Below are positions 20,158 through 61,766 of a stretch of DNA of 64,000 bases, piece after piece. The first letter of the stretch is position 1. Every line of letters begins with the position of its first letter. The DNA is taken from the IMG/VR virus record IMGVR_UViG_2660238580_000002; one strand, written 5' to 3'. This DNA comes from a virus (Duplodnaviria > Heunggongvirae > Uroviricota > Caudoviricetes). Both the position numbers and the translations under genes were made by a program. Below the pieces are notes generated by a model that saw only the letters and a program-made list of their open reading frames with translations, ran no database searches and was not told the DNA's origin.

Positions 20158-20946
20158 TTACGCCAGTTGTACGGACACGAACGCATCAGGGTCAGCCAGC
20201 AGCATCAGCGGTGCTGACTGAATCATGGTGAACTCACGCGCCGGATCGCCGGTGGTCACCCAGTTTTTCGGGTAACGGGCAGAGGCGTTAATGCCTTCGC
20301 GCTGTGCGTCCGCATCCTGAATGCAGCCATAGGTGCGCAGACCGCGTGCCTGAGTGTTCCCCAGCACCATCGTGTTGTCCGGCAGGAAGTTCTTTTTGAC
20401 GCCGTTTTCCACGTACTGTCCGGAATACACGACGATGGCCACATCGCCATACATCCCCTTATAGGACACCGCTTTGCCCAGGTCTTTCACCGCTGTCTCC
20501 AGCTCGGAATTAGAGCCACGACGGGTATCCAGCTTCTCCTTGACGGCTTTGAAGGAACGGAACAGCGCCCAGCCTTTCGGATCGAACACGATGATATTCA
20601 CCACACCGCTGGCGTTCAGCGCGTAGGCTTCGATATCGTCGGTCGGGTCATACGTGGACTTGTCACGCTTGCTCCACTCCGTGCCGCCGGACTGCGTGAT
20701 GTTATTCTCCTCACTGCGGCCCATATCCACCTCAACCGGATCGAAGGCTTCACCGGTCATGGTGTATTTGCCCTTAAGCACGGCAGAAACTGCCTGCATC
20801 TCTTCGACCTGAGCAATGGCCAGCTCTTCGTCACGCATGTTCTGCATGATGATGCGACGGCGGCGGTAAGCCGGGTCCGCCAGATTCTGCGGATCTTCAT
20901 CCGGCAGGCGACGCAGGGTCATCTGCGGATTCACTTCATGCTTCGG
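20158..20946 (-). pseudogene. E: major capsid protein E, 3' fragment (codons ~82-341) cut off from its 5' part by island insertion
   Basis: Reads PKHEVNPQMTLRRLPDEDPQ...PDAFVSVQLA with no start codon; in-frame stop immediately upstream of PKH. Confidence 0.92.
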
Positions 20947-20948
20947 CT
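20939..20948. repeat. 10-bp direct repeat TGCTTCGGCT (island junction, putative att core)
   Basis: Identical 10-mer at 33376-33385; lies in E codons Lys-Pro-Lys-His. Confidence 0.8.
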
Positions 20949-21082
20949 ACATGAGTCAAATATGAAAGGATGTGAATGATTTGATTACGTTTTAGCTATA
21001 GAATTGAAATGGAAAATCCTTGAATGCAATACAACGTGCAATACATGGATGAAAACCATCACTCATTTAACAAGAGGAATCT

Positions 21083-21988
21083 ATGCGCTCACCCAACAGA
21101 ATGCATGAACGCTCAACATTTTATAAGTATATGTCGTTGAATACCGCGAAGATTGTTCTTGATTCATGCAGCCTTAGATGGAGTTCTCCGGTCCTATTTA
21201 ATGACCCTTTTGATGTTCCAAGAGAAGTTATGCCTGGTATTAACGAAATTAATATTGGCAAAGCTTTAGCCCGCAAGTTAATAGCGGAGTTGATTACCCC
21301 CAGAGAAGACATACAAAATTTAAACCCTAGAATTAGAACAATGCTAAGTGATTTCCAAAAGTCATTTCCTTTAGGCATACCCGCAGGATTAATTGAAAGA
21401 TTTCAAGAAATGGTAAACATTCCACCAGTTGGGATTGGCGCTCCTGCGGCAATACAAGAAATGAAAGATGTCTGGCGAGGAATGCTTAATAACAGAAGGA
21501 TTTTGTGTTTATCTGAGAGCCCTATAATCACTCCTATGTGGAATCACTATGCCGATAAATATAAAGGTATAGTTATCGAATTTGATTGTGTAGACTTTCT
21601 GGATAGCGCTTGGTTAATAGCCAAACCTATGAAATACACAGATAAAATGCCTCTAACTCACACTGCTGAAGGGATGGCCGAGTTGCTTTTCATGCCAGAC
21701 AATAAGTCAATTGAATATATCAATAATGAGATAATATTCATAAAAACAGAAGAATGGGCATATGAAAGAGAGTGGAGAATTTCAACCTACGCTAGGCCAA
21801 ATAGCACTGGTCAATATAGCGACTTAAAATTTCACCCTTTTGAGTTAAAATCTGTAATACTTGGTCCTCTTTTTGATGCCAGCGAGTTCGATGAAGTCGC
21901 ATCACTAGTTAAGATGTATCCAAGAGCGAAATTATTTAAAAGTTCATTTGGGAACGACAGAAAAATATCCATAGTACCACTACCTTAA
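21083..21988 (+). CDS. DUF2971-family protein
   Basis: 301 aa; N-terminal FYKYMSLNTAKIVLDSCSLRWSSPVLFNDPFD signature; GAGGA RBS upstream. Confidence 0.65.
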   Translation: MRSPNRMHERSTFYKYMSLNTAKIVLDSCSLRWSSPVLFNDPFDVPREVMPGINEINIGKALARKLIAELITPREDIQNLNPRIRTMLSDFQKSFPLGIPAGLIERFQEMVNIPPVGIGAPAAIQEMKDVWRGMLNNRRILCLSESPIITPMWNHYADKYKGIVIEFDCVDFLDSAWLIAKPMKYTDKMPLTHTAEGMAELLFMPDNKSIEYINNEIIFIKTEEWAYEREWRISTYARPNSTGQYSDLKFHPFELKSVILGPLFDASEFDEVASLVKMYPRAKLFKSSFGNDRKISIVPLP

Positions 21989-22094
21989 AAGGTCAAATGC
22001 TTTTGACAAATAAAATCTATCGCCAGTTTTACTGGCGACTTTTAAGCAACAAAGAACCACCTAAGCACTCTTCCTACCTATGGTTTCATTTGTT

Positions 22095-22646
22095 TTAACT
22101 TCGCTGATTATCCTTGATATACCTTTCAGCCATATCTGGAATGTTATCTGAGATCTGGTAAGCTCGAATAAATGCTTTACTGACCTCCATCTTAATGAAG
22201 TCCTGATACCGTTTTTCCATGCCAGGAAACTGTCGACAGATCGCAAGTGGAAGACTATCAATGATTGCTCCAACTTCCCCAGTTAATTTCGACAAGGCAT
22301 AAGTCGCAAATGCAGTGTCAATTACCTCACCTGTTTCGCTGGCATTCTTCAGTTCCTGTGCGTCGGCCTGCGCACGCGTAAGTCGATGGCGTTCGTACTC
22401 AATAGTCCCTGGCTGGAGATCTGCCTCGCTGGCCTGGCGCAGTTCTTCAACCTCCCGGCGCAGCTTTTCGTTCTCAATTTCAGCATCCCTTTCGGCATAC
22501 CATTTTATGACGGCGGCAGAGTCATAAAGCACCTCATTACCCTTGTCACCGCCTCGCAGAACGGGCATTCCCTGCTCCTGCTAGTTCTGAATGGTACGGA
22601 TACTCGCACCGAAAATGTCAGCCAGCTGCTTTTTGTTGGCTTCCAT
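22095..22646 (-). pseudogene. terminase small subunit Nu1-like gene with in-frame amber codon at codon 22
   Basis: MEANKKQLADIFGASIRTIQN-TAG-QEQGMPVL...; first ~100 aa near-identical to prophage Nu1, C-terminal ~80 aa divergent; TAG at 22581-22583 where helper has TGG. Confidence 0.8.
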
Positions 22647-22699
22647 TGTTCATTCCACGGACAAAACCAGAGAAAGGAAACGACAGAGGCCAAAAAGCC

Positions 22700-22860
22700 T
22701 GTTTTTAGCACCTGTCGTTTCCTTTCTTTTTAGGGGATGTTTTTAATAAAAACATTAAGTTACGGCGAAGAAGAACGGAAACGCCTTAAACAGGAAAATT
22801 TTCACAAATAGCGAAAACCCGCGCGCCTGACGCCCCGTAGCCTGTCAGATCGCCGGAAAG
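22700..22860 (-). other. island cos-like region (cosB-like, variant cosN 22824-22835, partial cosQ-side)
   Basis: Aligns base-by-base with prophage cos (39600-39790); 5 of 12 cosN positions differ (GGGCGTCAGGCG vs GGGCGGCGACCT). Confidence 0.7.
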
Positions 22861-22891
22861 GACCCGCCAGCCAGAGCGGGCCCTAATTTCA

Positions 22892-23275
22892 TCAACCAAT
22901 CAGCTTATAGCGACCATCCCGTGCATTGCGGCGTACACGCTCAATCTTGAGGCATAGCGCCGCATCTGGCTTTTTTGGGACAGGTACGCGGCAATATTCA
23001 GAAGCGCGAGGAATATTATTTATCCAGTCGATCACTTCACTTAAATACCAGGCCTTACGCCCTTCCGTAACCTGCACACGCTCCGGGAACTCTCCACTAG
23101 CCTCAAGGTTTAGCAGTGTACGCCGACTCAGGGTTGTAATTTCCATCACCTGATTCATATCAACAAGGCGCTCGCTTAAACACATTTTGTCAGCGATAGC
23201 TTTTAATTCCTCTACAGCTGGATTCGGGTACATCATTTCGGCAATTGGCTTAAGGTCATTGTAATCATTCTGCAT
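22892..23275 (-). CDS. AlpA/excisionase-family HTH protein
   Basis: 127-aa ORF; C-terminal half ITTLSRRTLLNLEASGEFPERVQVTEGRKAWYLSEVIDWI resembles AlpA-type HTH; true start may be internal. Confidence 0.5.
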   Translation of the reverse strand: MQNDYNDLKPIAEMMYPNPAVEELKAIADKMCLSERLVDMNQVMEITTLSRRTLLNLEASGEFPERVQVTEGRKAWYLSEVIDWINNIPRASEYCRVPVPKKPDAALCLKIERVRRNARDGRYKLIG

Positions 23276-23286
23276 TGTATCCCCCT

Positions 23287-23628
23287 TTACACACGAGCCA
23301 GCGGCTGAACAGAAATACCTGAGCCAACAAACGCTGCAATCTTTACTGACAGTTCTTTTACAGACTCAGGCCAGTTCAGAGCATCAACATTTAAGACACC
23401 TGTCTTATAGACCTGAGCCCGTGTTTTTTTCGCGGTGTCGATTTGTACAGCGGAAACATAAACCGCTTTACCTACGCTCGAACCATCCCATACCACCAGT
23501 GCACCTGTTGCATCTTCCTGCATCAGTGGCGTAAATGCAGGAATTACCCCTTTATTAGCTGAAAATATCCCCAGCGTAGTCACCAGTGCTTCAGTGCCAG
23601 CCATGAGTTCAGTGTAATGAGTAGCCAT
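23287..23628 (-). CDS. head decoration protein D homolog (island-encoded)
   Basis: 113 aa; shares PA-TPLM...VAWDG/VVWDG...YK-G...WPE...AF-G with lambda gpD. Confidence 0.6.
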   Translation of the reverse strand: MATHYTELMAGTEALVTTLGIFSANKGVIPAFTPLMQEDATGALVVWDGSSVGKAVYVSAVQIDTAKKTRAQVYKTGVLNVDALNWPESVKELSVKIAAFVGSGISVQPLARV

Positions 23629-23637
23629 TGCTCCCCC

Positions 23638-24678
23638 TTAGCCAATGCGAACGGTAACAAAACGATTGATGCGGGCCGGTATTGGCTGTGGTGCTGAATG
23701 TGTCTGCACATATTCAATAGCCGGATCACCAGGTACAATATAGTTTTTCGGTGCAAGTTCGGCTTTAGTCAGCCCCATTCGGATTAGCTCCGGATCCTGA
23801 ATACCGCCATAGGCGACAATCCCCTGAAGAGCCGTATTGCCAAGCACCATCAAATCAGGATCAAGGAAATGTTTTTCTGTTCCGTCCTCGTCGGTATAAC
23901 GCCCGCTGTAAACAACAATCGCAACATCGCCCATATACCCTTTAAAACTCACCGAATCACCAAGGTCTTTAAGGGCCGTTTCCAGTTCGGAATTAGAACC
24001 ACGACGGGTATCCAAAGCCTCTTTTATCGCTCTGAATGAACGGTATTTCTTCCATACATTACCACCCATAATGATGATATTAGTGACGCCCTCACTAAAT
24101 TCTGCGTAGCTCTCAATATCATCATTTGGATCAAAAGTTTCTTTATCCTTACTTGACCACTCAGTACCGCCAGACTGAGTGATGATATTTTGTGGTTTTA
24201 TATTCCAGTCCAGCTCATAACGTTCAATACCATCGCCCTCAATGATATTTTTCCCCGTTGTGATTGCCTGAACAGCAAGCCATTCAATACGTGCACGAAT
24301 AGCTTTAGCTTGATTTACAATCGCCTGTTTAACTTTAATATTACGCGCCCCAAAAGCATTGTATTGCTCAGGTGATACACCAGCAGGGCGCACAGCTAAC
24401 TTATTTGGATCAATGCTGCTTTTCGGCTTCATATAGCCTGGACGAATTGTTTTTGATTCGTACCCTTCGTCACGTGAAACTTTACTACCCACCATAGGAG
24501 AACAAAACGCTGCAATTGGGATATTTGGATCGTCGATTGTATCAAGAATAATATCGCGCGATTCAAACATTACCGAGCGAGTAAAAAACAAACTGGTAAA
24601 CAACGCATTTAGTTGTTTTTGTACATCTACAGCATTAACCACCTGTACAAGCTGGGTAGGCGAATATAAATCAACCAT
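23638..24678 (-). CDS. major capsid protein E homolog (island-encoded, diverged)
   Basis: 347 aa from MVDLYSPTQL (AAAGAGGA RBS); C-terminus ITQSGGTEWS...DTRRGSNSELETA...GDVAIVVYSG aligns with lambda gpE. Confidence 0.8.
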   Translation of the reverse strand: MVDLYSPTQLVQVVNAVDVQKQLNALFTSLFFTRSVMFESRDIILDTIDDPNIPIAAFCSPMVGSKVSRDEGYESKTIRPGYMKPKSSIDPNKLAVRPAGVSPEQYNAFGARNIKVKQAIVNQAKAIRARIEWLAVQAITTGKNIIEGDGIERYELDWNIKPQNIITQSGGTEWSSKDKETFDPNDDIESYAEFSEGVTNIIIMGGNVWKKYRSFRAIKEALDTRRGSNSELETALKDLGDSVSFKGYMGDVAIVVYSGRYTDEDGTEKHFLDPDLMVLGNTALQGIVAYGGIQDPELIRMGLTKAELAPKNYIVPGDPAIEYVQTHSAPQPIPARINRFVTVRIG

Positions 24679-24963
24679 ACACATCCTCTTTGCATTCATT
24701 AAAAATAATTGTGGATATATGCTATCACCAATATTTGTCATGCGAATACATGCAACCGAGTGCAATGTTGTATAAAGTTTTGGGATGACAACTTCAGCGC
24801 GGATAATTAGTGTTAATATATTCACTCCCTTTGGTCGGGATTTATGTAGCATGCCGGAAAATTTATTTTTTCCGGCCTTTTTTATTGGCAATATTTAAAA
24901 CGGAATATCATCTCCCCATTGCTCATTATCTCCCACTGGTGGATGGCTTCCTTGCTGATCTGC

Positions 24964-25344
24964 CTATTGTTTTGCTCTGTTCAGTGCGTCAGTAGCCTGA
25001 CCCTGTTGACCTTTTTTGCCGCCCGGTCGCACCGTTCGCGCACTGATTACGCTGTCTGCGATAACCTGCCAGCCCTGCCGCGTTTCACCGTTCTGTCCAG
25101 TCCACTGGCTCACCTGCATGTTACCCGCCACGCTCAGGAGTTCGCCTTTGTGATGCTTTGCCAGCGCATCGGCTTGTCTGCCAAACGCCAGCACAGATAA
25201 CCACATCGTCGCCGTTCCGTCATCTGCCTGGCTGCATGGCAAAGATACCGCCATCCGTGCCAGTGTCATGGGTGTTCCCTTGCTGGTATGTTTTACCTGT
25301 GGGTCGTCCACCAGCCGCCCGTAAGCTGCTATTTGCGCCGTCAT
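24964..25344 (-). CDS. single-stranded DNA-binding protein (OB-fold, SSB-like)
   Basis: 126 aa with SSB-like pattern GRLVDDPQV...WLSVLAFGRQAD...KGELLSVAGNMQVSQW. Confidence 0.6.
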   Translation of the reverse strand: MTAQIAAYGRLVDDPQVKHTSKGTPMTLARMAVSLPCSQADDGTATMWLSVLAFGRQADALAKHHKGELLSVAGNMQVSQWTGQNGETRQGWQVIADSVISARTVRPGGKKGQQGQATDALNRAKQ

Positions 25345-25355
25345 GCTGCCTGCTC

Positions 25356-25598
25356 TCAGGACTTAATATTGATGGTTGTCACTTCCTCCGCTTCGGCAAT
25401 CTCCCGTTCGGTCAGCGTGGCAAAGTTTGCAGCCGCCGTTGTCATGAATGCGCTTATCAGTTCGGGATGTGCTTTCGCGTATCCTTCCCCGGCGTTGCGG
25501 TCTATTGCCTTAATCGCCACCCTTAGCCAGTGTTCAGCCATATCAAGGGCGCGGTAATGTGGCTTTATATGTTTGTTCAGTTTTCCTGATGTGTGCAT
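25356..25598 (-). CDS. hypothetical protein
   Basis: 80-aa ORF immediately downstream of iteron region. Confidence 0.4.
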   Translation of the reverse strand: MHTSGKLNKHIKPHYRALDMAEHWLRVAIKAIDRNAGEGYAKAHPELISAFMTTAAANFATLTEREIAEAEEVTTINIKS

Positions 25599-25643
25599 TT
25601 TTATTTTTACCCCCTCGTTTAAAAAGTTTTTTGTGCACCACCA

Positions 25644-25876
25644 CCTTGTCTACCTTGTCTACCTGATTAGTTATCAGGCCAGTAATGGCGCGGGTTTCAG
25701 AGAGGTAGACAGCCCCAAATAGCTGTCTACCTCATCTCTACCCGTCTCCTTACCTGTCTACAAAAATGGGTAGATAAGGTAGATAACAGGTAGACAGTGA
25801 AAAATAGTTATCTACCTGCATTAATACATTGAAATAAAAGTATTTTATTTCAGTCAGGTAGACAAGGTAGATAACC
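25644..25876. repeat. iteron cluster (GGTAGACA/GGTAGATA and complement TGTCTACC), putative island replication origin
   Basis: More than 10 copies of an 8-11 bp motif in both orientations, AT-rich, directly upstream of primase gene. Confidence 0.75.
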
Positions 25877-25887
25877 ATTGCCATTTT

Positions 25888-27639
25888 TTATAAAAACGCA
25901 TCGCAATCATCAGTAGTCGTTGCGTTGGTCTGAGTGACTCCCTTAACTTTTCGCGTAATATATTCATATCCGTAAACTTTCGCCGCTGACCTCATAGCCT
26001 TTCCGAACTCATTCACGCTCAAACATTTCCCCTTTCCTGTATATGCCATGAAGGCCATATAGACACGGTAAAGGCTGTTTCTGGTCGTGTACTTCACGGT
26101 GTCACCACCACCGCCCATCATTAGCCCACGAGCTTCCTCCAGAAACTCCAGCGCCGCGCAAAGCTCAACAACCGGATCCGTTTGCTGCTTTATTGCCAGA
26201 GCTTCATCACCGTCACGCTGTTCCAGTAATAAAGCCCGTGCCTTTTCAGGGTCAGCAAAATTAGCCAGCAAGCGGCGGATAATTACGGGGATTTCTGCCG
26301 CTATCTTTTCCGGTAATTCCTTGTCTTTTTCGTCCTCCCTTACAATGTTGTCGAACCGGAAAATCACCCGACGGCGTGACACACCTCCGGCCCGTTCGGT
26401 AAAGATCATCGGGTCGTTATTGGTTGCCAGTACCACCGCCCTTATTATCGTCGTGAATCGCTTCTCATATTTCGGGTTAATTTCAACGGGATCGCCTCCC
26501 GTGATTTTCTTGATGCCCGTGCCTTCCCCCGTATATTTCGGCTGATCGGCAAGGACGATAAGACGACTCCCGACAACCTGCGCGCGCCCTCCTGCATCAT
26601 CGAGTGATGTCATCTCTGCGCTTACGGTGTTCTGTTTGCCAGCAAGCAGGGTGGCAATATGAGTAAATGTGCTCTTTCCGCTTCCCCCGTCTCCGGTGGC
26701 CTCAATGAACATCTGCCAGTCGTAGCGGTTCGCCATAATCATGTATAACGCGGCACATATACGCATCATCTTGCGCGGGTCTTTTCCTGCAGCATGTTCA
26801 AGCCATTTATGGAAATTTGGCGCATTATCGCGGATGTTTTCCCCTGCTACTGGTGGCGTGTACTCAATACCATTGTGCGTGGTGCTCCAGTGCTCCGGCG
26901 AGTGCGGAGAAAATTCCCCCGTTTTCAGATTAAGCACACCATTAGTGAACGGTAGCAAATCACCGGACGGCTCCCCCATGGGGGCGGCAATAACTTTTAA
27001 CGCTTCCACGGCGTTATTGATTACGCGCTTGCTGAACGTGGCCCTGTGCTCTGAATAGATCGCCACCATTTCGCGGCTCAGCTCCATTGTGCTGACCGGA
27101 CACCATACCCCGCCGCGCCATACGTGGACGATTTCACTTTCTGCATGAACACAAACACCATCAAAGCGATCGGCAAGTAGTTGTGCCCGCTCACTGTCTG
27201 CCATCTGTGAAAGTTGCGCCTTTTGCTTCGTCGGAAGATTAAGCACCAGGCTTTCCCCACGCTCGCATTCCTCTTTGAGTCGCGGCAACTGGTCGGATAA
27301 ATCCACTGGGCTGGTGTCAGTAATCCCCGCGTATTCGTGTACGGTCTTCACTCCAGCCACAGCCAGTAACGTAACAATCTGCGTCATGCTGTGCTCTGTG
27401 ATATGTCCTGCGCGGTAAACACGCACACACTGACGATCTTCATCAATGATCCGGTAATCGGTGATGTTTTTCAGTTGCTCATCAGCCAACACGACAGGCG
27501 GCACATCGTCGGCGGCAATATGTTTACCCGCCCATTCCTGCCACTCTTTCGCATGGCTCCACGCATCACTACCTGCAAAGATGATTACCTCTGTCAGTCT
27601 GTCGCGTGGCTGTTTTTTTAAGTTCGGTGCCAGTTTCAT
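25888..27639 (-). CDS. P4-family primase/helicase (Pri-Rep-like replication protein)
   Basis: 583 aa; Walker A GDGGSGKST in C-terminal NTPase domain; adjacent to iterons. Confidence 0.75.
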   Translation of the reverse strand: MKLAPNLKKQPRDRLTEVIIFAGSDAWSHAKEWQEWAGKHIAADDVPPVVLADEQLKNITDYRIIDEDRQCVRVYRAGHITEHSMTQIVTLLAVAGVKTVHEYAGITDTSPVDLSDQLPRLKEECERGESLVLNLPTKQKAQLSQMADSERAQLLADRFDGVCVHAESEIVHVWRGGVWCPVSTMELSREMVAIYSEHRATFSKRVINNAVEALKVIAAPMGEPSGDLLPFTNGVLNLKTGEFSPHSPEHWSTTHNGIEYTPPVAGENIRDNAPNFHKWLEHAAGKDPRKMMRICAALYMIMANRYDWQMFIEATGDGGSGKSTFTHIATLLAGKQNTVSAEMTSLDDAGGRAQVVGSRLIVLADQPKYTGEGTGIKKITGGDPVEINPKYEKRFTTIIRAVVLATNNDPMIFTERAGGVSRRRVIFRFDNIVREDEKDKELPEKIAAEIPVIIRRLLANFADPEKARALLLEQRDGDEALAIKQQTDPVVELCAALEFLEEARGLMMGGGGDTVKYTTRNSLYRVYMAFMAYTGKGKCLSVNEFGKAMRSAAKVYGYEYITRKVKGVTQTNATTTDDCDAFL

Positions 27640-27935
27640 TTTTTGCCCCTGAATGCGTTAATCATGCTTTTCATTTTCTGGATGTTTCCCCGCGCTTTTT
27701 CCCTGCTGATGGGCTTACTGCGGGGTGCGGCATATACCAGGGAAAAATCACGCCGGAACTGATAAACAGGCATCACGCAGTCATAGCTATACCCCTCACG
27801 ACGGTAAGTGATGCGCCGTTCTGCCACGCCTTTAATCGTTACCGTGCCGCCGTATTTATCGCGGTAAATATCGCCGTTCATAAATTCAGGCCGAGCGGGG
27901 CCGCTGGCAATAAAGCCAGAATTTTTCATTTCCAT
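27636..27935 (-). CDS. hypothetical protein
   Basis: 99-aa ORF, stop overlaps primase start. Confidence 0.4.
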   Translation of the reverse strand: MEMKNSGFIASGPARPEFMNGDIYRDKYGGTVTIKGVAERRITYRREGYSYDCVMPVYQFRRDFSLVYAAPRSKPISREKARGNIQKMKSMINAFRGKK

Positions 27936-27952
27936 ATTATTTATTCCTCGAC

Positions 27953-28174
27953 TTAACTCGACTTATTTGATAGCAGGGCACTATTTATTGCGTCATTGAG
28001 TTTTTCTGCTGCTTCATCAATAAGTGACAACAGGCCATAAGCAATATTTGCATCTTCATTGTCATTTATGCAATCAAGCCACATATTTAATATTGCTTTT
28101 GCTGAATTATTTAAAGTTAATGAACTTTCTGCACATGCTAACAATTTAAAAAAGACTTCCCGTTCTGTATTCAT
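27953..28174 (-). CDS. hypothetical protein
   Basis: 73-aa ORF in island early region. Confidence 0.35.
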   Translation of the reverse strand: MNTEREVFFKLLACAESSLTLNNSAKAILNMWLDCINDNEDANIAYGLLSLIDEAAEKLNDAINSALLSNKSS

Positions 28175-28366
28175 TTAATCCCCCACCAGCTTACTTTCTT
28201 CCTCAATCAAAAAACTAGCGACACTTCCCGAAAGACGCGCCAGTAGGCTCGCCAGTGCGGATATATCAGCATCTGTAATTTTGTTCGGGTATACCTCAAG
28301 AAGGCGGCAAATAATTTCTGTCTGGTGCGCACGTTCAGCGGCTTCGTGTAATGTGATTTCCTGCAT
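28175..28366 (-). CDS. hypothetical protein
   Basis: 63-aa ORF in island early region. Confidence 0.35.
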   Translation of the reverse strand: MQEITLHEAAERAHQTEIICRLLEVYPNKITDADISALASLLARLSGSVASFLIEEESKLVGD

Positions 28367-28600
28367 TAATGCACCTCTTTTAATTCATACACTGCTGAAA
28401 TAATGACTTGTGATAAGCCATATTCTGATGATTCGCTTCTCACCGCAGCAATAGCCGTCTGAACATTAACAGCCTTCACGTTCTGAGCGATACCAATTGT
28501 GTGGCCTAGTGGGTTAACCGCACGAGCAAATACACGGAAGGTTTTAAGCACGGCATACTGAACCGCCCCGGGTTTCCTGGAGAGTGTTTTATCTGTGAAC

Positions 28601-29491
28601 TCAGGCTGCCAGATCATCGTTTCCGATGGAAGCATAATAAGCTTTTTCTGCTTCTGCCGGAGGAGTATGGCCCAGCCTTTCCAGCAATCGTCGATTGTTA
28701 TACCAGTCCACCCACGTGAGTGTGGCCAGTTCCACTTCTGCACGGTTTTTCCAGCTCTTACGGTGTATTACCTCCGCTTTGTAAAGACCATTGATGCTCT
28801 CCGCCATCGCGTTGTCATACGAGTCGCCTGTACTTCCTGTTGATGCCAGTAATCCGGCTTCCTTAAGCCGCTGTGTGTAGGCCAGCGATACATACTGAGA
28901 ACCTTTATCACTGTGATGGACCGTGCCGGACGGTCGACGGGCCCATAACGCCTGCTCCAGTGCATCCAGCACGAATGTCGTTTCCATGGACGATGAGACC
29001 CGCCACCCCACGATGTATCCGGCAAACACATCAATGATGAACGCCACATAGACGAAGCCCCGCCATGTGCTGACGTAAGTAAAATCAGCCACCCACAGCT
29101 GGTCAGGTCGTTCTGCCACGAACTGACGGTTTACGCGGTCGCCTGCGGCAACGGCTTTCCGGCTGATGGTCGTACGGACCTTTTTACCCCGGAGAACACC
29201 GGCAAGTCCCATAACCGCCATGAGACGTGCCACAGTGCATCTGGCCACTCTGATACCTTCCCGTAACAACTGACGCCAGACTTTACGCACACCGTATACC
29301 TTGTGATTTTCATCGTATACGCGCTGTATCTCTTTCTTCAGCCAGTCATCGCGCTGCGCACGGGCACTGCGTTTATCCGGATGATGTCGCTGTTGCTGAC
29401 AGTGGTAATACGTTGACGGGGCAATATGCAGTTCGCTGCATAGCGGTCCGACCCCGTACTGCTCACGCAGCTTATCCAGCAGTGGCATCAT
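28601..29491 (-). CDS. IS629 transposase OrfB (DDE integrase core)
   Basis: 296 aa, identical to copy at 61767-62657. Confidence 0.9.
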
Positions 29492-29814
29492 TTTTTCCAG
29501 AGGCGGTCGAACTCCGCCTTCGCAAAATAAGCGGAAGCCTGGCGAAGGATATCGTTACTGCGGCGCAGTTCACGATTTTCACGTTCCAGCTCTTTCAGAC
29601 GCTGACGTTCAGCGGTGGTGAGCCCTCCATCACCGCCCCCGGTATCCCGCTCATGCTGGCGAACCCAGACACGCAGAGTCTCCGGCGTACAGCCAATCTT
29701 TGGAGCAATGGAACAAATTGTCGCCCATTGTGAGTCATATTCGCTCTGACTTTCCAGAACCATACGGACTGCCCGTTGACGGACTTCGGGGGAAAAACGA
29801 GTATTTTTAGTCAT
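29488..29814 (-). CDS. IS629 transposase OrfA (HTH)
   Basis: 108 aa [30 protein letters not shown]. Confidence 0.9.
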
Positions 29815-29868
29815 CCTGTTTACCTCTTTCTCAGGAAGTTTAGTCTCCAGGATTCCCGGGGCGGTTCA

Positions 29869-30060
29869 TACCTCCTGACGAATACGGGCGGCAAATATCA
29901 TCACGCAGCCAGTTGGGGATTGTTGGCGGGCTTCCTGTTCGCTGGCGGCCTCGATGTGTATTACGCGTGGTTGTGCGGTGCTCAGGGCGATAAAACGCCA
30001 GATGTATTTATTCAGGTTGTGCGGGTCCCGCCCTTGCGGGTGTGTGGTATGATTTCTCAT
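29869..30060 (-). CDS. Icd-like cell division inhibitor family protein, 3' end truncated by IS629
   Basis: YIWRFIALSTAQPRVIHIEAASEQEARQQS...IFAARI resembles Icd-like small proteins; reading past the IS predicts loss of only 3 codons. Confidence 0.45.
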
Positions 30061-30198
30061 AGCTATCTCGATACTGTTGCTATCGTTGGTGGTTAGAAGC
30101 CCGTTGGTGTTCCTAGCGCCTTCGGGCTTTGCTTTTTTAAGTGCCTCCGTGTTAAGGTGGTCACCTAACAGTAAAAAGGCTAATTCAATAGGTGGTCA

Positions 30199-30391
30199 CT
30201 TGTCAACAATCAAACGCGATAAAAGTCCTAAGGGTGATGGGCAATCTCCACAATTCAGAATGCGAATTTCTCCAGAGCTAAAAGAGCAATTCGACAAAGA
30301 AGCGCAGAGCGACGGCATAAGCCTAGCCAACTGGCTTAAAGAATTAGGGCGCAAAGAGCTGCTACGGCGCGGTATTGAACCAAAAGGATAA
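30199..30391 (+). CDS. ribbon-helix-helix (Arc/CopG-like) DNA-binding protein
   Basis: C-terminal ISPELKEQFDKEAQSDGISLANWLKELGRKELL RHH pattern; start uncertain (TTG at 30199 with AGGTGG SD, or ATG at 30260). Confidence 0.5.
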
Positions 30392-30418
30392 GAGTAATTG
30401 AAGTCAAGGAGCTAACAC

Positions 30419-30775
30419 ATGAAATACGAATTCTTCGCAACAAGTAGCAGTAGTTTGGATGTATACATAGTCACTGTATCAAACGATTCTAGCTCGCTAA
30501 TCATGACTTGCAATTGTCCAGCAGGAAGTAAAGGTATTCTATGTAGACACCGTAAAGCTTTAATTACCGGAAAAATCCGTGGTATATTCACTCCCCCAAG
30601 AAGGAATAATCCCGAAAAGTTACAAGAAGCTATAAATTTAATAACCACATATGGCATAGATAAAACATTAAAGTTGTACACTGATGAGTTAGAACGAGCA
30701 GAACAGACTTGGATAAGTGTTCGCGATAATTTGAGAGCAATGATAAACGCTCTTGTTGAACCACCTAAATATTGA
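30419..30775 (+). CDS. small SWIM-type zinc-finger protein
   Basis: 118 aa with CNCPAGSKGILCRH (CxC...CxH); AAGGAG RBS upstream. Confidence 0.5.
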   Translation: MKYEFFATSSSSLDVYIVTVSNDSSSLIMTCNCPAGSKGILCRHRKALITGKIRGIFTPPRRNNPEKLQEAINLITTYGIDKTLKLYTDELERAEQTWISVRDNLRAMINALVEPPKY

Positions 30776-30906
30776 ACTGTTCACATTGCCTATCAGTCGA
30801 CAACCTCGTATTCTGATTAAGGCTAACTATATACTCACATTGGCGACCAATTCTGGTCGCCTTTATCCACCATTTTTATAACATCATAGATTAAAAGTGT
30901 TAATCC

Positions 30907-31737
30907 TTACCCCCTGAATGGAATTGATGAGGATTTAATTTCCACTGAACTAAATCCTTTTGAATCCAAGAACATTTTTATACCAGCCTCAATGAAATCA
31001 TAATCGTTTGTCGGGCCAATAGTAATACTTTTAATTGGTAACTTCCTATGATCTTTATTACCAATGATGATATAAGGGATGACACCATTATTATTTATTC
31101 TGAATTGCACATCTGGTATTAGTATGCGCGGAGTAAATACCAATCTAAATTCATTTTCTTCGATAAAACTAGGATGTTTAAAAAATGGGATGTATTTAGA
31201 TATAAATTGATACGTAGAGGCCATTGTTACAAAATGATCATTCTTTTCTTTAATATTAATACCATTACAAGAAAAAAACGCCCCCAACTCCTTACTCATC
31301 TTAGTAACATCGTTATTATTTGAATATATAACATCATGTGCAACACAATTTAAATAAATATTTTGAGAAAAGCTCACAAGTTCATCCGCATCAAACTCAA
31401 TGCAAACACCCTGTTTATTTCCGTAACCTCTCCACTGACTTAACTTATCGTTTTCCTTACAAAAAGAGATGCTATAAACATGTTTATCAATCCCTTTTTC
31501 TTTTTGTAACCTCCCTTTCTCATACATGTCAAGAGACTTGAGCAAAATAGTTTTCTTATCTTTTGGAATGATATTGTCATCAACTATTTTAATTGTATTT
31601 CGAAAGCATTCACATCCATGGTTAGACTCCTCTTTATCATTTAAGAAATATATGTTTGTAGCCCATAAAGAATTAGAGTCTAATATACCTTTCAAACCAA
31701 AAAGATCTGTATAATGAAATATAGCCACAATGCCCAC
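30907..31737 (-). CDS. DUF2971-like protein
   Basis: 276 aa; N-terminal IFHYTDLFGLKGILDSNSLWATNIYFLNDKEE resembles DUF2971 signature. Confidence 0.5.
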   Translation of the reverse strand: MGIVAIFHYTDLFGLKGILDSNSLWATNIYFLNDKEESNHGCECFRNTIKIVDDNIIPKDKKTILLKSLDMYEKGRLQKEKGIDKHVYSISFCKENDKLSQWRGYGNKQGVCIEFDADELVSFSQNIYLNCVAHDVIYSNNNDVTKMSKELGAFFSCNGINIKEKNDHFVTMASTYQFISKYIPFFKHPSFIEENEFRLVFTPRILIPDVQFRINNNGVIPYIIIGNKDHRKLPIKSITIGPTNDYDFIEAGIKMFLDSKGFSSVEIKSSSIPFRG

Positions 31738-31744
31738 CTAATAG

Positions 31745-31975
31745 TTAAGTTGTTTCCCACTCACCTCGAATCCATGCCTGCACTTCTGAAAGACGATATG
31801 CAACAGCAGTGGAACCAATCTTGATCCGCTTAGGAAATTTTCCTTCCTTCTCCAGCTTCCAGCGTGTGCTGTTCGCAAGAGTGGTTAGCTCCCGACATTC
31901 TTTCTCACGGATCATTCGGTCAATGTTAGGAATGTACTCCAGACCCTTTTTATCAACAATTGCCATTTTTTTCAT
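31745..31975 (-). CDS. alpA: AlpA-family transcriptional regulator
   Basis: 76 aa; TTLANSTRWKLEKEGKFPKRIKIGSTAVAYRLSEVQAWI AlpA-type HTH; immediately downstream of int. Confidence 0.75.
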   Translation of the reverse strand: MKKMAIVDKKGLEYIPNIDRMIREKECRELTTLANSTRWKLEKEGKFPKRIKIGSTAVAYRLSEVQAWIRGEWETT

Positions 31976-31976
31976 G

Positions 31977-33212
31977 TTAACCAGCCTTTTGTTTGAGGAT
32001 TGTCACTTTTGAATCAGCACCTGCGATGCTATTGAGATATGTAGTCCAGAGTTCCAGAGCATCCAGTTTTTTAGCCATAAACTTACTCCGGTTGTAAACA
32101 CCTGCCACGCCAGGTAGCGCATGGCCTAACAGTTGTTCTACTACATAAAATTCAACACCGAGATCACTTAGATGAGTAGATAGCGTTCTTCTAAGGTCGT
32201 GTAGTGACCATTGTTTTTCATGGCCCAAACGTTTACCGATTTTCCCCCCAATCTTGCTTACGCTTTCTCTAATTCGCAGACTTCCCAGCACATAACCAGT
32301 ATGTTTTGTCTCTTCGTGAACATCCGTTACCCACTGTCGTAGAATTTCAGGTACTGGTCTGACGATTTCAACACCGGTTTTTGAGTGTTCTTTTGGTACA
32401 GTCCAAACCCAACTTTCTAGATCCCATTCGCTCCATTCTGATAATCGGGCTTCACTCATTCGACATCCAAATACTGTACAAAGCACAAACATTTTTCGCG
32501 TGTATTCAGACATTAGTTTTAAATCAGGCTCGACAAAAATTGCCTTCCAGAGCTGGCCCAGTTCGGCTTCATCCAGAACCCGATCCCGCTTACCTGCAAT
32601 CTGCCCCACATCACTCATGCGCAAATCCTTTAAAGCATCACACGTCGCGTACTGGCGTACCCGACAAAAACGAAGAGCTAATTTAGTGTCAGAAAAAACA
32701 TACGCCGCCATAACTGGTGCATTACGTTTAATTCGGTCAAAACAGTCCAGCCATTCATATAGGTGAGTGTCATTTACGGGCAAATGACCGATATAGGGAA
32801 AGATATGCTTTCGAAATCTGCCAAGCGTTACAGCATGAGTTTTACGACGCACCTTACAGTAATTTTCATACCAGTAATTTAGTGCATCCTCCACTGTGAC
32901 CGGCTTTAAGCGTTCTTCAGCCTGAATCTTAATCTGGATACGCGGATCACGTTTGTCAGCCAACCAACCACGGCACTCGTCGCGCTTTTCTCTTGCCTGT
33001 TTGAGTGACATATCAGGATATTTACCCAACGTTAGCCAGACCGGAGCAGCCCGGCCACCTGCTAACCTGTAGAAGAAAACAAAGCTCACAGCCCCCTTAG
33101 TACTCACACGAATAGAAAGCCCCTTTCCATCAGCAATGGTGATCTGCTTTTCTCTGGGTTTCCCCAGATATCCTTTAAGCGCTTTGTCGCTCAGTTTGTT
33201 CTCGCCAGCCAT
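31977..33212 (-). CDS. int: P4-type tyrosine integrase
   Basis: Start MAGENKL; DUF4102-like arm domain; catalytic residues R (CRMSEARL), HDLRRT, Y (VAGVYNRS); adjacent to junction repeat. Confidence 0.9.
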   Translation of the reverse strand: MAGENKLSDKALKGYLGKPREKQITIADGKGLSIRVSTKGAVSFVFFYRLAGGRAAPVWLTLGKYPDMSLKQAREKRDECRGWLADKRDPRIQIKIQAEERLKPVTVEDALNYWYENYCKVRRKTHAVTLGRFRKHIFPYIGHLPVNDTHLYEWLDCFDRIKRNAPVMAAYVFSDTKLALRFCRVRQYATCDALKDLRMSDVGQIAGKRDRVLDEAELGQLWKAIFVEPDLKLMSEYTRKMFVLCTVFGCRMSEARLSEWSEWDLESWVWTVPKEHSKTGVEIVRPVPEILRQWVTDVHEETKHTGYVLGSLRIRESVSKIGGKIGKRLGHEKQWSLHDLRRTLSTHLSDLGVEFYVVEQLLGHALPGVAGVYNRSKFMAKKLDALELWTTYLNSIAGADSKVTILKQKAG

Positions 33213-33344
33213 TTTTAGCCCCAAAAAGCAATACAAGCTGCAATACAGAGATGATTGCAACACACAGATAACGAGGAAAATCCAGTGAAAGCGCCAGATA
33301 ATCTTATTCTTTATTATCAAAGAATTAAGTGTAAAAACCAGCAA

Positions 33345-33620
33345 CTACACGAAAGCCTCAGAAAGCCATGCTAAGTGCTTCGGCTTGACATATCCCGGCG
33401 TAAATTCAGAGGTGGAGCCGCCACGGGAACGGATAACCTCACCGGAAACAATCGGCGAAACGTACAGCGCCATGTTTACCAGTCCCGGAATTTGTGAGAG
33501 ATAGACTTTCTCCGTGGTGAAGGGATAGCTCTCACGGAAAAAGAGACACAGAAACAGCGGATCAAACTTAAATTTCTGCTCATTTGCCGCCAGCAGTTGG
33601 GCGGTTGTGTACATCGACAT
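33345..33620 (-). pseudogene. E: major capsid protein E, 5' fragment (codons 1-~83) fused to 9 island-derived codons
   Basis: MSMYTTAQLLAANEQKFKFDPLFL...EFTPGYVKPKH then LAWLSEAFV-stop from island sequence. Confidence 0.92.
33376..33385. repeat. 10-bp direct repeat TGCTTCGGCT (island junction, putative att core)
   Basis: Identical to 20939-20948; overlaps E codons Lys-Pro-Lys-His of the 5' fragment. Confidence 0.8.
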
Positions 33621-33675: not shown

Positions 33676-34008
33676 TTAAACGATGCTGATTGCCGTTCCG
33701 GCAAACGCGGTCCGTTTTTTCGTCTCGTCGCTGGCAGCCTCCGGCCAGAGCACATCCTCATAACGGAACGTGCCGGACTTGTAGAACGTCAGCGTGGTGC
33801 TGGTCTGGTCAGCAGCAACCGCAAGAATGCCAACGGCAGCACCGTCGGTGGTGCCATCCCACGCAACCAGCTTACGGCTGGAGGTGTCCAGCATCAGCGG
33901 GGTCATTGCAGGCGCTTTCGCACTCAATCCGCCGGGCGCGGTTGCGGTATAAGCCGGGTCACTGTTGCCCAGCGGCTGGTAATGGGTAAAGGTTTCTTTG
34001 CTCGTCAT
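33676..34008 (-). CDS. D: head decoration protein D
   Basis: [12 protein letters not shown]...; 333 nt equals lambda D. Confidence 0.92.
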
Positions 34009-34017
34009 AAACATCCC

Positions 34018-34623
34018 TTACACTGGTGTGTTCAGCAAATCGTTAACGGCATCAGATGCCGGGTTACCTGCAGCCAGCGGTGCCGGTGCCCCCTGCATCA
34101 GACGATCCAGCGCAGTGTCACTGCGCGCCTGTGCACTCTGTGGTGCTGCGGCCAGAATGCGGCGGGCCGTTTCCACGGTCATACCGGGGGTTTCTGCCAG
34201 CACGCGTGCCTGTTCTTCGCGTCCGTGAGCCTCCTCACAGTTGAGGATCCCCATAATGCGGCTGTTTTCTGCCGCAACCGCTGCGGTGATCTGCGCGTTC
34301 ACGTCCGGCTGCGCCGCGCTGGCGTTTTCGCCCTCCGTCGCTGGCACCACGTCAGTAACGTCAGCCTGCGAAGCAGTGGCTGAAACAGTTGTTGATTGAG
34401 TCTCTTTGGTCATTCGCCCTCCTGAGAGACGGGATTTACGTGCATCCAGTGCATCACGCATGACGGTGATCGCATCGGTGCTGTTAACAAGTTCATCAGC
34501 CAGTCCGGCATCAATGGCCTCCTGACCGCTGTACACTGCAGCCTCGGTATCCAGCACAGCCTGCACGGACAGGCCGGTATATGCCGACACCTTCTGCGCA
34601 AACATCTGGCGGGTTGCGTCCAT
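34018..34623 (-). CDS. Nu3: scaffolding protein Nu3 (in-frame internal start within C)
   Basis: Internal Met MDATRQMFAQ gives 201 aa, matching lambda Nu3 arrangement. Confidence 0.7.
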   Translation of the reverse strand: MDATRQMFAQKVSAYTGLSVQAVLDTEAAVYSGQEAIDAGLADELVNSTDAITVMRDALDARKSRLSGGRMTKETQSTTVSATASQADVTDVVPATEGENASAAQPDVNAQITAAVAAENSRIMGILNCEEAHGREEQARVLAETPGMTVETARRILAAAPQSAQARSDTALDRLMQGAPAPLAAGNPASDAVNDLLNTPV

Positions 34624-35317
34624 CCGGGACTGCAGTGTCTCCCGGACGTCATCCGGAAGATGGCTGTAGGGGTTGCCATCCACCTTATGGCTGCCGCTGT
34701 AAATCAGAGTGATTTCCACACCCTGTTTCTCCAGCGCAGCACCGTAATTACTGTGAGCCATCATGACGCCGATGGAGCCTGTCCGGGCGGTCTGCGTGAC
34801 CAGACGCCGGGAGGCGGCACTGGCAAGCAGCTGACCTGCACTGCAGTTCATGTCGTTGGCCAGCGCCCATACCGGTTTTATGTCACGCACACGGGCGATG
34901 ATGTCAGCGCAGTCAAATGCCCCCGCCACCATCCCTCCGGGCGTGTCCATATCGAGCAGAATGCCGTCCACCATCGGATCGCTGGCAGCCTGTTGCAGAC
35001 GGGCGATAATGCCGTTGTAACCGGTCATCCCCGAATACGGCTGCAGCGCCCGCGTCCGGCTGACCAGCGTGCCGGACACCGGCAGCACGGCGATGCCGTT
35101 CATGACCTGATAACTGCGGGCCTGTCGTGGTCCGTCATCATCAACGGATAACGCCAGCGCCGCGGGTGCCTCTCCGGCAGTCAGGCTGTCGCCGGACACC
35201 GCATCCGTCAGGCGGCTGATCCCAAGCTGGCCTGCAAGCGCACAAAAGAAAACCCGCGCATAGGCGGGTTCAAGCATCAGCGGCTCATTAAAAGCCATGC
35301 TGGCAATATGCGGGAGA

Positions 35318-35337
<20 letters not shown>
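34018..35337 (-). CDS. C: capsid assembly protease C
   Basis: 1320 nt equals lambda C; GTG start inferred (VTAELRNLPHIASMAFNEPL); 20-nt overlap with B as in lambda. Confidence 0.85.
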
Positions 35338-37119
<1,782 letters not shown>

Positions 37120-37123
<4 letters not shown>

Positions 37124-39045
37124 TCATCCTCTCCGGATAAGGCACGGGCGTAATCTGCCAGTGTTTTCTTGTTGGTTGCTGCACCATCCTCTTCCTGCAG
37201 GCTCGCCAGCAGTGCACTGAGATCCAGCTGCCAGCGGGAAATACTGATGCGCAGCGCCGCCAGCGCATAAACGAAGCAGTCGAGTGCCTCATTGCGTCGC
37301 TTTTTGCTGTCCCACAGTATTTTTTTCCTGCCATCCACCCATTTTTCGACCTGCTCTTCAGCAGTCAGCTGCTGCGCTTCGGTCAGATCAAAAATATCCG
37401 GGTTATTCGGGAAGTGAACGGCACCGGGAAGCGGTTCATCCCCTTCCGGCGTCAGTGTGAAGCGGTTATAAATCTGCTCTTTCGCGGTATCCGTACCGAT
37501 TTCGGTAAGGTAAACCCCGTTTTTGTTTCGCTTACGTGGCATGCTGGCCACCGGCTTTCCGTAGACGGATGCCCCTTTAATGGGGATCACCCGGAACAGC
37601 CCATGTTTTTTCGAGCGTTCATACACAATGGTCGGGTCAATCCCGCCAGTATCCCAGCAGATACGGGATACCGACATTTCTGCACCATTCCGGCGGGTAT
37701 AGGTTTTATTGATGGCCTCATCCACACGCAGCAGCGTCTGTTCATCGTCGTGGCGACCCATAATAATCTGCCGGTCAATCAGCCAGCTTTCCTCACCCGG
37801 CCCCCATCCCCATACGCGCATTTCGTAGCGGTCCAGCTGGGAGTCGATACCGGCGGTCAGGTAAGCCACACGGTCAGGAACGGGCGCTGAATAATGCTCT
37901 TTCCGCTCCGCCATCACCTCAGCATCCGGACGTTCGCCGATTTTCGCTTCCCATGTCTCACCGAGCGTGGTGTTCACGAAGGTTTTACGTTTTCCCGTAT
38001 CCCCTTTCGTCTTCATCCAGTCTTTGACAATCTGCACCCAGGTGGTGAACGGGCTGTACGCCGTCCAGATGTGAAAGGTCACACTGTCCGGCGGCTCAAT
38101 CTCTTCACCGGATGACGAAAACCAGAGAATGCCATCACGGGTCCAGATCCCGGTCTTTTCGCAGATATAACGGGCATCAGTAAAGTCCAGCTCCTGCTGG
38201 CGGATGACGCAGGCATTATGCTCGCAGAGATAAAACACGCTGGAGGGGTCATCCGGCGTCCATTTGAGGCCAAACGGCGTCTCTTTGTCGCCAAATTTAA
38301 GATACTGCTCCTCCCCGCAGTGCGGGCAGGCAACATGAAAACGCATAAAATGCAGGGATTCACTGGCTGCACGCTCAATCTGGCAGGTGCCTCTCACTTT
38401 GGGCGTGGAGCCACGGATGGACTTTGGCCAGACCGAGCCTTCAATACGTTTGTCGCCAAGGAACGTCGGAGAGCCTTCCTGTTCAATATCCTCATCAAAG
38501 GCAGCAAGTTCATCATAACCCGCCACATCCACCGACTTTTCACGGTAGTTTTTTGCCGCTTTACCGCCCAGGCACCAGAAGCCACGACCATTGGAAAAAC
38601 GCTTCATAGTGAGCGTGTTATCCCGGTGCTTTTTGCCATACCACGGAGCCAGCGCCAGCAGCGACGGAATATCGCGGATGGTCGGCTCAACGTGGGTTTT
38701 CATAAAGTTCTCGGCATCACCATCCGTCGGCAACCAGATAAGGGTGTTGCGCTGCTTATGCTCTATAAAGTAGGCATAAACACCCAGCAGCATTTTGGAA
38801 TAACCGACACGGGCAGACTTCACCACATTCACCTCACGGATGTAGTCGCTGCCCATCGCATTCATGATGGCCCGCTGAAAGGGCAGTGTTTCCCAGCGCC
38901 CTTCCTGGTATGCGGATTCTTTCGGGAGATAGTAATTAGCATCCGCCCATTCAACGGCGGTCTGTGGCTCCGGCCTGAACAGTGAGCGAAGCCCGGCGCG
39001 GACAAAATGCCGCAGCCTGTTAACCTGACTGTTCGATATATTCAC
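37120..39045 (-). CDS. A: terminase large subunit A
   Basis: 641 aa; 1926 nt equals lambda A. Confidence 0.93.
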
Positions 39046-39565
39046 TCAGCAACCCCGGTATCAGTTCATCCAGCGCGGCTGCTTTGTTCATGGCTTTGAT
39101 GATATCCCGTTTCAGGAAATCAACATGTCGGTTTTCCAGTTCCGGAAAACGCCGCTGCACCGACAGGGGGATCCCGTCGAGAATACTGGCAATTTCACCT
39201 GCGATCCGCGACAGCACGAAAGTACAGAATGCGGTTTCCACCACTTCAGCGGAGTCTCTGGCATTTTTCAGCTCCTGTGCGTCGGCCTGCGCACGCGTAA
39301 GTCGATGGCGTTCGTACTCAATAGTCCCTGGCTGGAGATCTGTCTCGCTGGCCTGCCGCAGTTCTTCAACTTCCCGGCGCAGCTTTTCGTTCTCAATTTC
39401 AGCATCCCTTTCGGCATACCATCTTATAACGGCGGCAGAGTCATAAAGCACCTCATTACCCTTGCCACCGCCTCGCAGAACGGGCATTCCCTGTTCCTGC
39501 CAGTTCTGAATGGTACGGATACTCGCACCGAAAATGTCAGCCAGCTGCTTTTTGTTGACTTCCAT
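39020..39565 (-). CDS. Nu1: terminase small subunit Nu1
   Basis: 181 aa MEVNKKQLADIFGASIRTIQNWQEQGMPVLRGGGKGNEV; 546 nt equals lambda Nu1. Confidence 0.93.
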   Translation of the reverse strand: MEVNKKQLADIFGASIRTIQNWQEQGMPVLRGGGKGNEVLYDSAAVIRWYAERDAEIENEKLRREVEELRQASETDLQPGTIEYERHRLTRAQADAQELKNARDSAEVVETAFCTFVLSRIAGEIASILDGIPLSVQRRFPELENRHVDFLKRDIIKAMNKAAALDELIPGLLSEYIEQSG

Positions 39566-39599: not shown

Positions 39600-39790
39600 C
39601 GACAGAGGCCCAAAAGCTCGTTTTCAGCACCTGTCGTTTCCTTTCTTTTCAGGGGGTATTTTAAATAAAAACATTAAGTTACGACGAAGAAGAACGGAAA
39701 TGCCTTAAACCGGAAAATTTTCATAAATAGCGAAAACCCGCGAGGTCGCCGCCCCGTAACCTGTCGGATCACCGGAAAGGACCCGTAAAG
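39600..39790 (-). other. prophage cos site (cosB, cosN at 39743-39754, cosQ)
   Basis: Contains AGGTCGCCGCCC (reverse complement of lambda cohesive end GGGCGGCGACCT) followed by CGTAACCTGTCGGATCACCGGAAAGGACCCGT. Confidence 0.85.
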
Positions 39791-53238: not shown

Positions 53239-53604
53239 ATGATTGATGTCTTAGGACCGGAGAAACGCAGACGGCGTACTACACAGGAAAAGATCGCTAT
53301 TGTTCAGCAGAGTTTTGAACCGGGAATGACGGTCTCCCTTGTTGCCCGGCAACACGGTGTGGCAGCCAGCCAGTTATTTCTCTGGCGCAAGCAATACCAG
53401 GAGGGAAGTCTTACTGCTGTGGCCGCAGGAGAGCAGGTCGTTCCTGCCTCTGAACTTGCTGCTGCCATGAAGCAGATTAAAGAACTCCAGCGCCTGCTCG
53501 GCAAAAAAACGATGGAAAATGAACTCCTTAAAGAAGCCGTTGAATACGGGCGTGCAAAAAAGTGGATAGCGCACGCGCCCTTATTGCCCGGGGATGGGGA
53601 GTAA
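53239..53604 (+). CDS. insC: IS2 InsC (OrfA)
   Basis: [30 protein letters not shown]. Confidence 0.9.
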
Positions 53605-61672: not shown

Positions 61673-61766
61673 ATTCAGCATTTGTGCTTGTTCTGACAGT
61701 TTTTCTTGTTTCCGGAGAGCCAGTTGAACCGCCCCGGGTTTCCTGGAGAGTGTTTTATCTGTGAAC

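Follow-up and report, generated by a model that had tools for sequence, protein, structure and literature searches.

The 64,000-nt stretch analyzed here, a record of a Caudoviricetes virus (IMG/VR IMGVR_UViG_2660238580_000002; the whole stretch is called the window below), carries a lambdoid prophage whose major capsid gene, E, is interrupted by a block with its own integrase gene. We conclude that this block (20949–33385) belongs, as a helper-embedded phage-inducible chromosomal island (HE-PICI), to the published site group E:Phage_cap_E:80, and we put the probability of this assignment at about 0.94. Judged from the sequence, the window has every testable feature that defines the group, with the sole exception of the “Bro zone” label. 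Earlier work has already described such an arrangement at this exact site, together with its identity block and its excision behavior, and the window contains one more, partly decayed, copy.

Split gene E and its match to a published island group

A perfect 10-bp direct repeat, TGCTTCGGCT (AGCCGAAGCA in its gene-strand form), was found at positions 20939–20948 and 33376–33385 of the 64-kb window. The copy at 33376–33385, on the minus strand and on the integrase-proximal side, corresponds to the attL core, and the copy at 20939–20948, also on the minus strand, to the attR core. The form “agccgaagca” of this identity block is listed 85 times in the supplement of the paper that described the group (PMC10111431). 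The block flanked by the repeats is 12,437 bp long, or 11.1 kb when an insertion sequence (IS) of 1,310 bp is subtracted. Outside it lie the two parts of the helper gene E, both on the minus strand: the 5′ fragment with codons 1–82 (33376–33620), the counterpart of which in the genome LST200A is annotated as a partial major capsid protein, and the 3′ fragment (20158–20948), identified by reconstruction of the open reading frame (ORF) and by the LST200A annotation. When the minus-strand segments 33620–33386 and 20948–20158 were joined, they formed an unbroken ORF of exactly 1,026 nt, encoding 341 aa, and the rebuilt protein matched the Pfam family Phage_cap_E from end to end (E = 3.8e-72). The repeat occupies codons 79–82 of E (K-P-K-H). 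The island brings no replacement E sequence in its attP; the reading frame of the 5′ fragment enters the island and meets a stop at 33345. The first-pass annotation, which placed the split at Pro-Lys-His, gave the two parts a sum of 1,026 nt, and set a 12.4-kb block between perfect 10-bp repeats with an integrase gene about 160 bp inside one junction, was correct in repeat, coordinates, and arithmetic; the last distance was measured as 164 bp.

The same annotation knew of no description of such an arrangement, and on this point it was mistaken. Tommasini, Mageeney and Williams (2023, NAR Genomics and Bioinformatics; bioRxiv 2022; PMC10111431) named the “helper-embedded PICI”, and elements at this site were thus discovered, named, cataloged, and tested for excision in 2022–2023. 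Their type element, Eco567.11capE of Escherichia coli NRG857c, is an 11-kb island that lies inside the lambda-type E of a prophage, disrupts E, and has a capsid gene of its own; its junctions are marked by a 10-bp identity block, and 201 instances are reported for the site group (PMC10111431). After mitomycin C treatment, quantitative PCR and deep sequencing showed that the composite of prophage and island excises and replicates, and that Eco567.11capE later excises precisely, which yields attB and attP and restores E (PMC10111431).

For a comparison at the protein level, the type element was taken from NC_017634. The integrase was 99.5% identical over 411 aa, and on this measure it belongs to the 11capE clade. 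The identities of AlpA and of a second AlpA-like protein were both 100%, and those of the island's own major capsid and head decoration proteins (E′ and D′) were 99.4% and 99.1%. The primase (48%) and the DUF4222 protein (44%) were far less similar, which indicates that the replication module differs from that of 11capE. At the DNA level, the attL flank in the window is nearly identical to the alignments printed in the supplement of PMC10111431. The attP of HE-PICIs is reported to carry a doubled tgTGTATTGCantgTGTATTGCa motif on either side of its center, 81 ± 2 bp away on the upstream side and 132 ± 2 bp away on the downstream side (PMC10111431). In the attP rebuilt from the window, doubled TGTATTGC motifs, which are candidate arm-type sites, match this spacing: one pair (21026–21045, minus strand) ends approximately 81 bp before the center, and the other (33228–33247, minus strand) starts approximately 132 bp after it. 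The window island thus resembles Eco567.11capE in the insertion codon in a lambda-type E, the 10-bp identity block, the attL flank, the doubled TGTATTGC motifs, the island-type core of the packaging site cosN, and co-orientation with the helper late genes. It differs in the form of the identity block (agccgaagca here and aacccaagca in NRG857c, both of which are cataloged variants), in its cargo (a DUF2971 gene similar to PDC-S31 and a Nu1-like pseudogene, as opposed to HEPN and DUF262 genes), in the location of its helper (the Qin site between rspB and ydfJ, as opposed to icd), and in the IS3-family insertion and the nonsense codon in the gene for the single-stranded DNA-binding protein (SSB) of the window copy.

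Located between rspB and ydfJ, the helper is a full-length lambdoid prophage related to the Qin cryptic prophage of E. coli K-12. We examined the distribution of the site in 5,426 complete E. coli genomes. The rebuilt 600-bp attB was uninterrupted in 3,097 of them, three times at 100% identity, and the integrase-side junction occurred in 170. The other junction occurred in only 32 because the cargo at that end varies. An empty site was found in CFSAN061762, where the same Qin-like prophage lies next to ydfJ with an uninterrupted E of 1,026 nt and a 100% match to attB; the genes for D, the protease, the portal, and FI in its neighborhood have identical RefSeq protein IDs. Related islands also occupy different prophages, one integrated at icd in NRG857c (PMC10111431) and others at rspB/ydfJ in the window and in LST200A. 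The empty site, the common target, and the recurrence of the junctions in different prophages together identify the block as a separate mobile element. No searched complete genome covered more than 89% of the island, and the best-matching islands lack the IS at 28559–29868.

As the sequence shows, the island integrase recombined an attP containing the 10-bp core with codons 79–82 of E, thereby splitting the gene. The model published for the type element can be applied to the window only by inference. Upon induction of the helper, the whole composite would excise and replicate; late in the cycle, Int and AlpA would excise the island at the 10-bp core, so that E is restored. Once free, the island would use its own primase and iteron origin for replication, and its cos site would allow packaging by the helper terminase. 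The island homologs of E and D may contribute to head assembly or substitute in it; the authors of the published study suggested that the capsid gene of the island may serve in place of the disrupted one (PMC10111431). In such a system, a satellite would hold its helper's capsid gene hostage while being replicated as well as transcribed in cis by this same helper. The earlier proposal of a satellite that has its attachment site in E, splits the gene, and upon precise excision would make it whole again is supported, but its statement that integration disables helper capsid production is too simple, because the island has its own E and D homologs.

What the window adds is one instance in a full-length Qin-like prophage at ydfJ, with an exact empty-site comparator and signs of decay. 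For genome annotation, such loci should be labeled as a HE-PICI within a split E, and not as two capsid pseudogenes and an unrelated island.

State of this copy and competing readings

Membership in the published group is a separate matter from present-day function, and several observations weigh against the latter. The 1,310-bp IS lies 5–7 nt upstream of the replication operon's first small ORF, where a polar effect on the replication genes is likely, and the nonsense codon at position 127 of the SSB gene removes the acidic C-terminal tail of the protein (…DDIPF). In a sister island, that of WP7-S17-ESBL-04, an independent IS1 insertion interrupts the primase gene, which suggests that the lineage is decaying. 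The 12-nt cosN cores of the island and the resident helper differ at five positions. In the early region of the helper itself there are IS66 and ISNCY elements, which are also present in the empty-site strain, and the window contains further IS copies. Lastly, even with the type element, the authors were unable to obtain virions (PMC10111431). Given these inactivating lesions in both the copy and its helper, current mobility is uncertain; the sequence makes autonomous replication and helper induction doubtful for the window copy. Excision is plausible, since no lesion affects Int, AlpA, either 10-bp core, or either doubled arm-type motif. The empty site in CFSAN061762 lends indirect support to precise excision.

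The most serious competitor to a working island is an inert relic, stranded in a cryptic Qin-like prophage and incapable of excision, replication, or transfer, with the split E a dead gene. We regard this as quite possible, although on balance we do not favor it. In addition to the IS in the island early operon, the SSB nonsense codon, and the IS1 of the sister copy, the amber codon in the island's Nu1-like gene points in this direction, as do the IS66 and ISNCY elements in the helper early region, which are common to three strains and imply long vertical residence, and the report that many HE-PICI helpers look truncated (PMC10111431). Against it stand the intact recombination functions (an Int of 411 aa, AlpA, both cores, and both arm-type motifs) and the lambda-like head and tail genes of the helper, which are full length apart from E. 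Moreover, the same IS-bearing prophage exists with an intact E in CFSAN061762, from which it follows that this prophage gained or lost the island when those IS elements were already in place. The decay signs, i.e., IS insertions and nonsense codons, also fit the idea of “abandoned” HE-PICIs (PMC10111431).

The window copy was compared with its relatives. The sister islands in LST200A and WP7-S17-ESBL-04 are 99.7–99.9% identical to it, and the SSB nonsense codon is common to these three only; ES10 and NRG857c have an unbroken gene. The 1,310-bp IS, which is flanked by a 3-bp target duplication (TAC), is not in the islands of LST200A, WP7-S17-ESBL-04, or ES10. Copies with 100% identity to it are found on many plasmids, and its ends read TGAACCGCCCCGGG. 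On its terminal sequence, this IS3-family element is tentatively classed as IS629-like.

That the block is a HE-PICI using its regular site would be wrong if a PICI that normally integrates in the chromosome had inserted here once, off target. HE-PICI integrases do have recorded off-target events, and the integrase of the tRNA-Phe group is nearly identical to the cap_E integrase (PMC10111431); however, 170 complete genomes and the 201 cataloged instances all have the insertion at this one codon of E, with conservation of the identity block and of the att arms, which makes such an accident highly improbable. The first-pass annotation had itself raised two further doubts, and we give hardly any credence to either. 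An assembly or chimera artefact, for which no point was found in favor, is rejected by the recurrence of the same junctions in independent closed genomes (170 on the integrase side and 32 on the other); these junctions have a clean 10-bp repeat at their bounds and were confirmed by experiment elsewhere (PMC10111431). A conserved moron or module of this phage type would account for the lambda-like late genes E′, D′, and Nu1′ and for a cos region approximately 94% identical to that of the helper, but the block has its own int, alpA, primase, and origin, occurs within a different prophage at icd in NRG857c, and is missing from the same prophage at the same locus in CFSAN061762, the comparator that decides the question.

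Gene content of the island

Except for the SWIM gene and the DUF2971 gene on the attR side, the genes listed below share the minus strand with E and the helper late operon; int, alpA, and the primase gene are thus co-oriented with the interrupted E. Starting from attL, the first gene encodes the tyrosine integrase (31977–33212, minus strand; 411 aa), in which a domain search identified Arm-DNA-bind_3 and Phage_integrase. It is followed by alpA (31745–31975, minus strand), which encodes an excisionase or regulator and was identified by a domain search and by comparison with 11capE over 73 aa. A variable zone comes next. It contains the weaker of the two DUF2971 genes of the island (30907–31728, minus strand; domain search), a gene for a SWIM zinc-finger protein (30419–30775, plus strand; annotation and domain search), and an Icd-like gene (29869–30060, minus strand), the end of which, as comparison with the sister islands showed, was cut off by the IS insertion, at the cost of a few codons. 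The IS itself (28559–29868, minus strand) was delimited by the same comparison and contains an ALIL frameshift pseudoknot.

The replication module begins with three small ORFs and a DUF4222 gene (27636–28551, minus strand; ORFs and annotation), which lead into the gene for a primase/helicase-type replication protein with D5_N, DUF5906, and Pox_D5 domains (25888–27639, minus strand; domain search). Directly downstream of this gene, at 25640–25880, lies a candidate origin in which the unit AGGTAGAYA occurs at least 10 times, in both orientations. One small ORF separates this iteron cluster from the SSB gene (24895–25344, minus strand), which was identified by a domain search and compared with its relatives.

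The late zone opens with the gene for E′, a protein of 346 aa in the lambda E family (23638–24678, minus strand), followed by the gene for D′, a head decoration protein of the lambda D type with 113 aa (23287–23628, minus strand), and by that for a second AlpA-family helix-turn-helix (HTH) protein of 127 aa (22892–23275, minus strand); all three were identified by domain searches. E′ is 42% identical to the helper E. Its match to PDB 3bqw, a “putative prophage capsid protein” (E = 1.5e-121), is far better than that to the lambda E structures (only approximately 1e-77), and a solved structure of this satellite-type capsid protein is therefore already available. The protein of 3bqw presumably originated from E. 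coli CFT073. Next come the island cos region (22690–22870, minus strand), recognized by comparison with the helper cos, and a gene for a Nu1-like small terminase (Nu1′; 22095–22646, minus strand; domain search), which comparison with relatives showed to be a pseudogene with a TGG-to-TAG change at codon 22. Beside attR is a cargo gene on the plus strand (21083–21988) for a DUF2971 protein that matches the PADLOC candidate defense family PDC-S31 (E = 2e-32). The position adjacent to attR is a slot for variable cargo, occupied in NRG857c by the HEPN and DUF262 genes.

No portal, protease, large terminase, tail, or lysis genes were found in the block when the island ORFs were searched against Pfam and PHROGs, and no homologs of Sid, Psu, Delta, or Epsilon were found among these ORFs in the same searches. 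An Rfam scan detected no C4 or isrK immunity RNA, a type of RNA that some PICIs carry, its sole match being the ALIL pseudoknot of the IS. The published Integration, Replication, and Late zones are clear in this gene order; the second zone consists of the DUF2971, SWIM, and Icd-like genes and has neither a Bro-N match nor a C4/isrK RNA, as seen without the authors' specialized Bro annotation. A promoter and terminator scan gave counts no higher than those of shuffled controls, and its result was not used.

These results bear out what the first-pass annotation had read from the sequence, i.e., a set of hallmark satellite genes (int, alpA, a primase, iterons, and a cos site) in a block free of portal, protease, large terminase, and tail genes. 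Its gene list was right as far as it went, but it left out E′, D′, Nu1′, and the IS3-family insertion.

Packaging site, other satellites, and the helper

The island cos and the 5′ part of Nu1′ are approximately 94% identical to the corresponding helper sequence over 531 bp, and the 3′ part of Nu1′ has diverged. Capture of helper late DNA has been proposed for HE-PICIs (PMC10111431), and the identity of approximately 94% fits such a capture. The cosN core of the helper, GGGCGGCGACCT (39743–39754, minus strand; sequence match), is of the lambda type. That of the island, GGGCGTCAGGCG (22824–22835, minus strand; sequence comparison), is the variant also present in the NRG857c island, and an exact-match scan found it in 53 IMG/VR contigs, most of which are satellites with an alpA-like/D′/E′ neighborhood. 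We considered whether GGGCGTCAGGCG is a satellite-specific cosN and rejected this; in three contigs it stands beside a helper-type Nu1 with 99% identity, and one of these (L008) also has gpA and the portal at 99%.

The Nu1′ amber (within 22575–22592) falls inside the recognition helix of the HTH and is also found in LST200A, WP7-S17-ESBL-04, and ES10. A conserved amber yielding an N-terminally truncated, dominant-negative small terminase subunit (TerS) was likewise rejected. Among the seven IMG/VR contigs with the island cosN and a complete gene, codon 22 is an intact TGG in four (183 aa) and TAG in three, as in an ordinary pseudogene polymorphism at a spot for variable cargo. A Nu1-like start after cos was not detected in 37 of the 53 contigs, most of which have other cargo at this spot.

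A bolder reading of the packaging genes is that, while E is split, heads of satellite E′ and D′ form on the helper portal and protease, with satellite DNA with its non-lambda cohesive ends as the favored substrate. We think this improbable. If it were true, E′/D′, a helper-like cosB, and a variant cosN would together make up an uncharacterized strategy of packaging and assembly that goes beyond the “backup copy” remark in PMC10111431.

The island agrees with Gram-negative PICIs in general in its size, in the range of approximately 10–15 kb, in its possession of int, alpA, a primase with an origin, and a site for packaging, and in being free of lysis and tail genes. It shares with EcCICFT073 and other Gram-negative cos PICIs (PMC6092414, PMC6739421) the order int, alpA, variable zone, primase/origin, and late genes, a length of approximately 11 kb, cos-dependent use of a lambdoid helper, and a capsid homolog. 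EcCICFT073, in contrast, is integrated in the chromosome and affects its helper in trans only. It also has a phage-like cosN, a divergent cosB, and the protein Rpp, which redirects TerS, whereas here the cosB-like part is approximately 94% identical to that of the helper and the cosN core differs. The 127-aa HTH protein beside cos was considered as an Rpp homolog and rejected; in sequence comparison, it matched no Rpp structure in PDB and only an AlpA-family structure.

With satellite P4, the island shares an integrase of the same broad clade (PMC10111431), an AlpA-family regulator, a D5-type primase-helicase, and cos packaging by a helper; it differs in having no Sid, Psu, Delta, or Epsilon match, a lambdoid rather than a P2-like helper, and a prophage gene instead of a tRNA gene as its site. 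Capsid-forming PICIs (cf-PICIs) also encode their own major capsid protein, but they add a portal, a protease, connectors, TerS, and TerL, whereas only E′, D′, and a broken Nu1′ are present here. In elements of regulated gene integrity, such as skin in sigK of Bacillus subtilis and the comK prophage of Listeria, a gene is similarly split and restored by precise excision at a defined moment. The split gene here belongs to another mobile element, the helper phage, and the timing presumably serves the satellite rather than the cell.

The annotated genes of the helper include nohA, ydfO, cspI, rzpQ, relBE, dicA, and dicB. Upstream of E, its head and packaging genes nu1, A, W, B, C, and D (33676–39565, minus strand) are intact and co-oriented with the island. 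The window ends inside the helper exonuclease gene, so that int and xis of the helper lie beyond position 64000. A second copy of the 1,310-bp IS lies in the helper ydfD at approximately 61728–63037 and is not in LST200A. Two further insertions relative to LST200A are an IS1-sized segment of 768 bp near ydfJ (1331–2098) and one of 1,328 bp (53150–54477) inside tnpA of the resident IS66. The ends of the latter are IS2-like. IS elements appear to be unusually abundant in the source strain.

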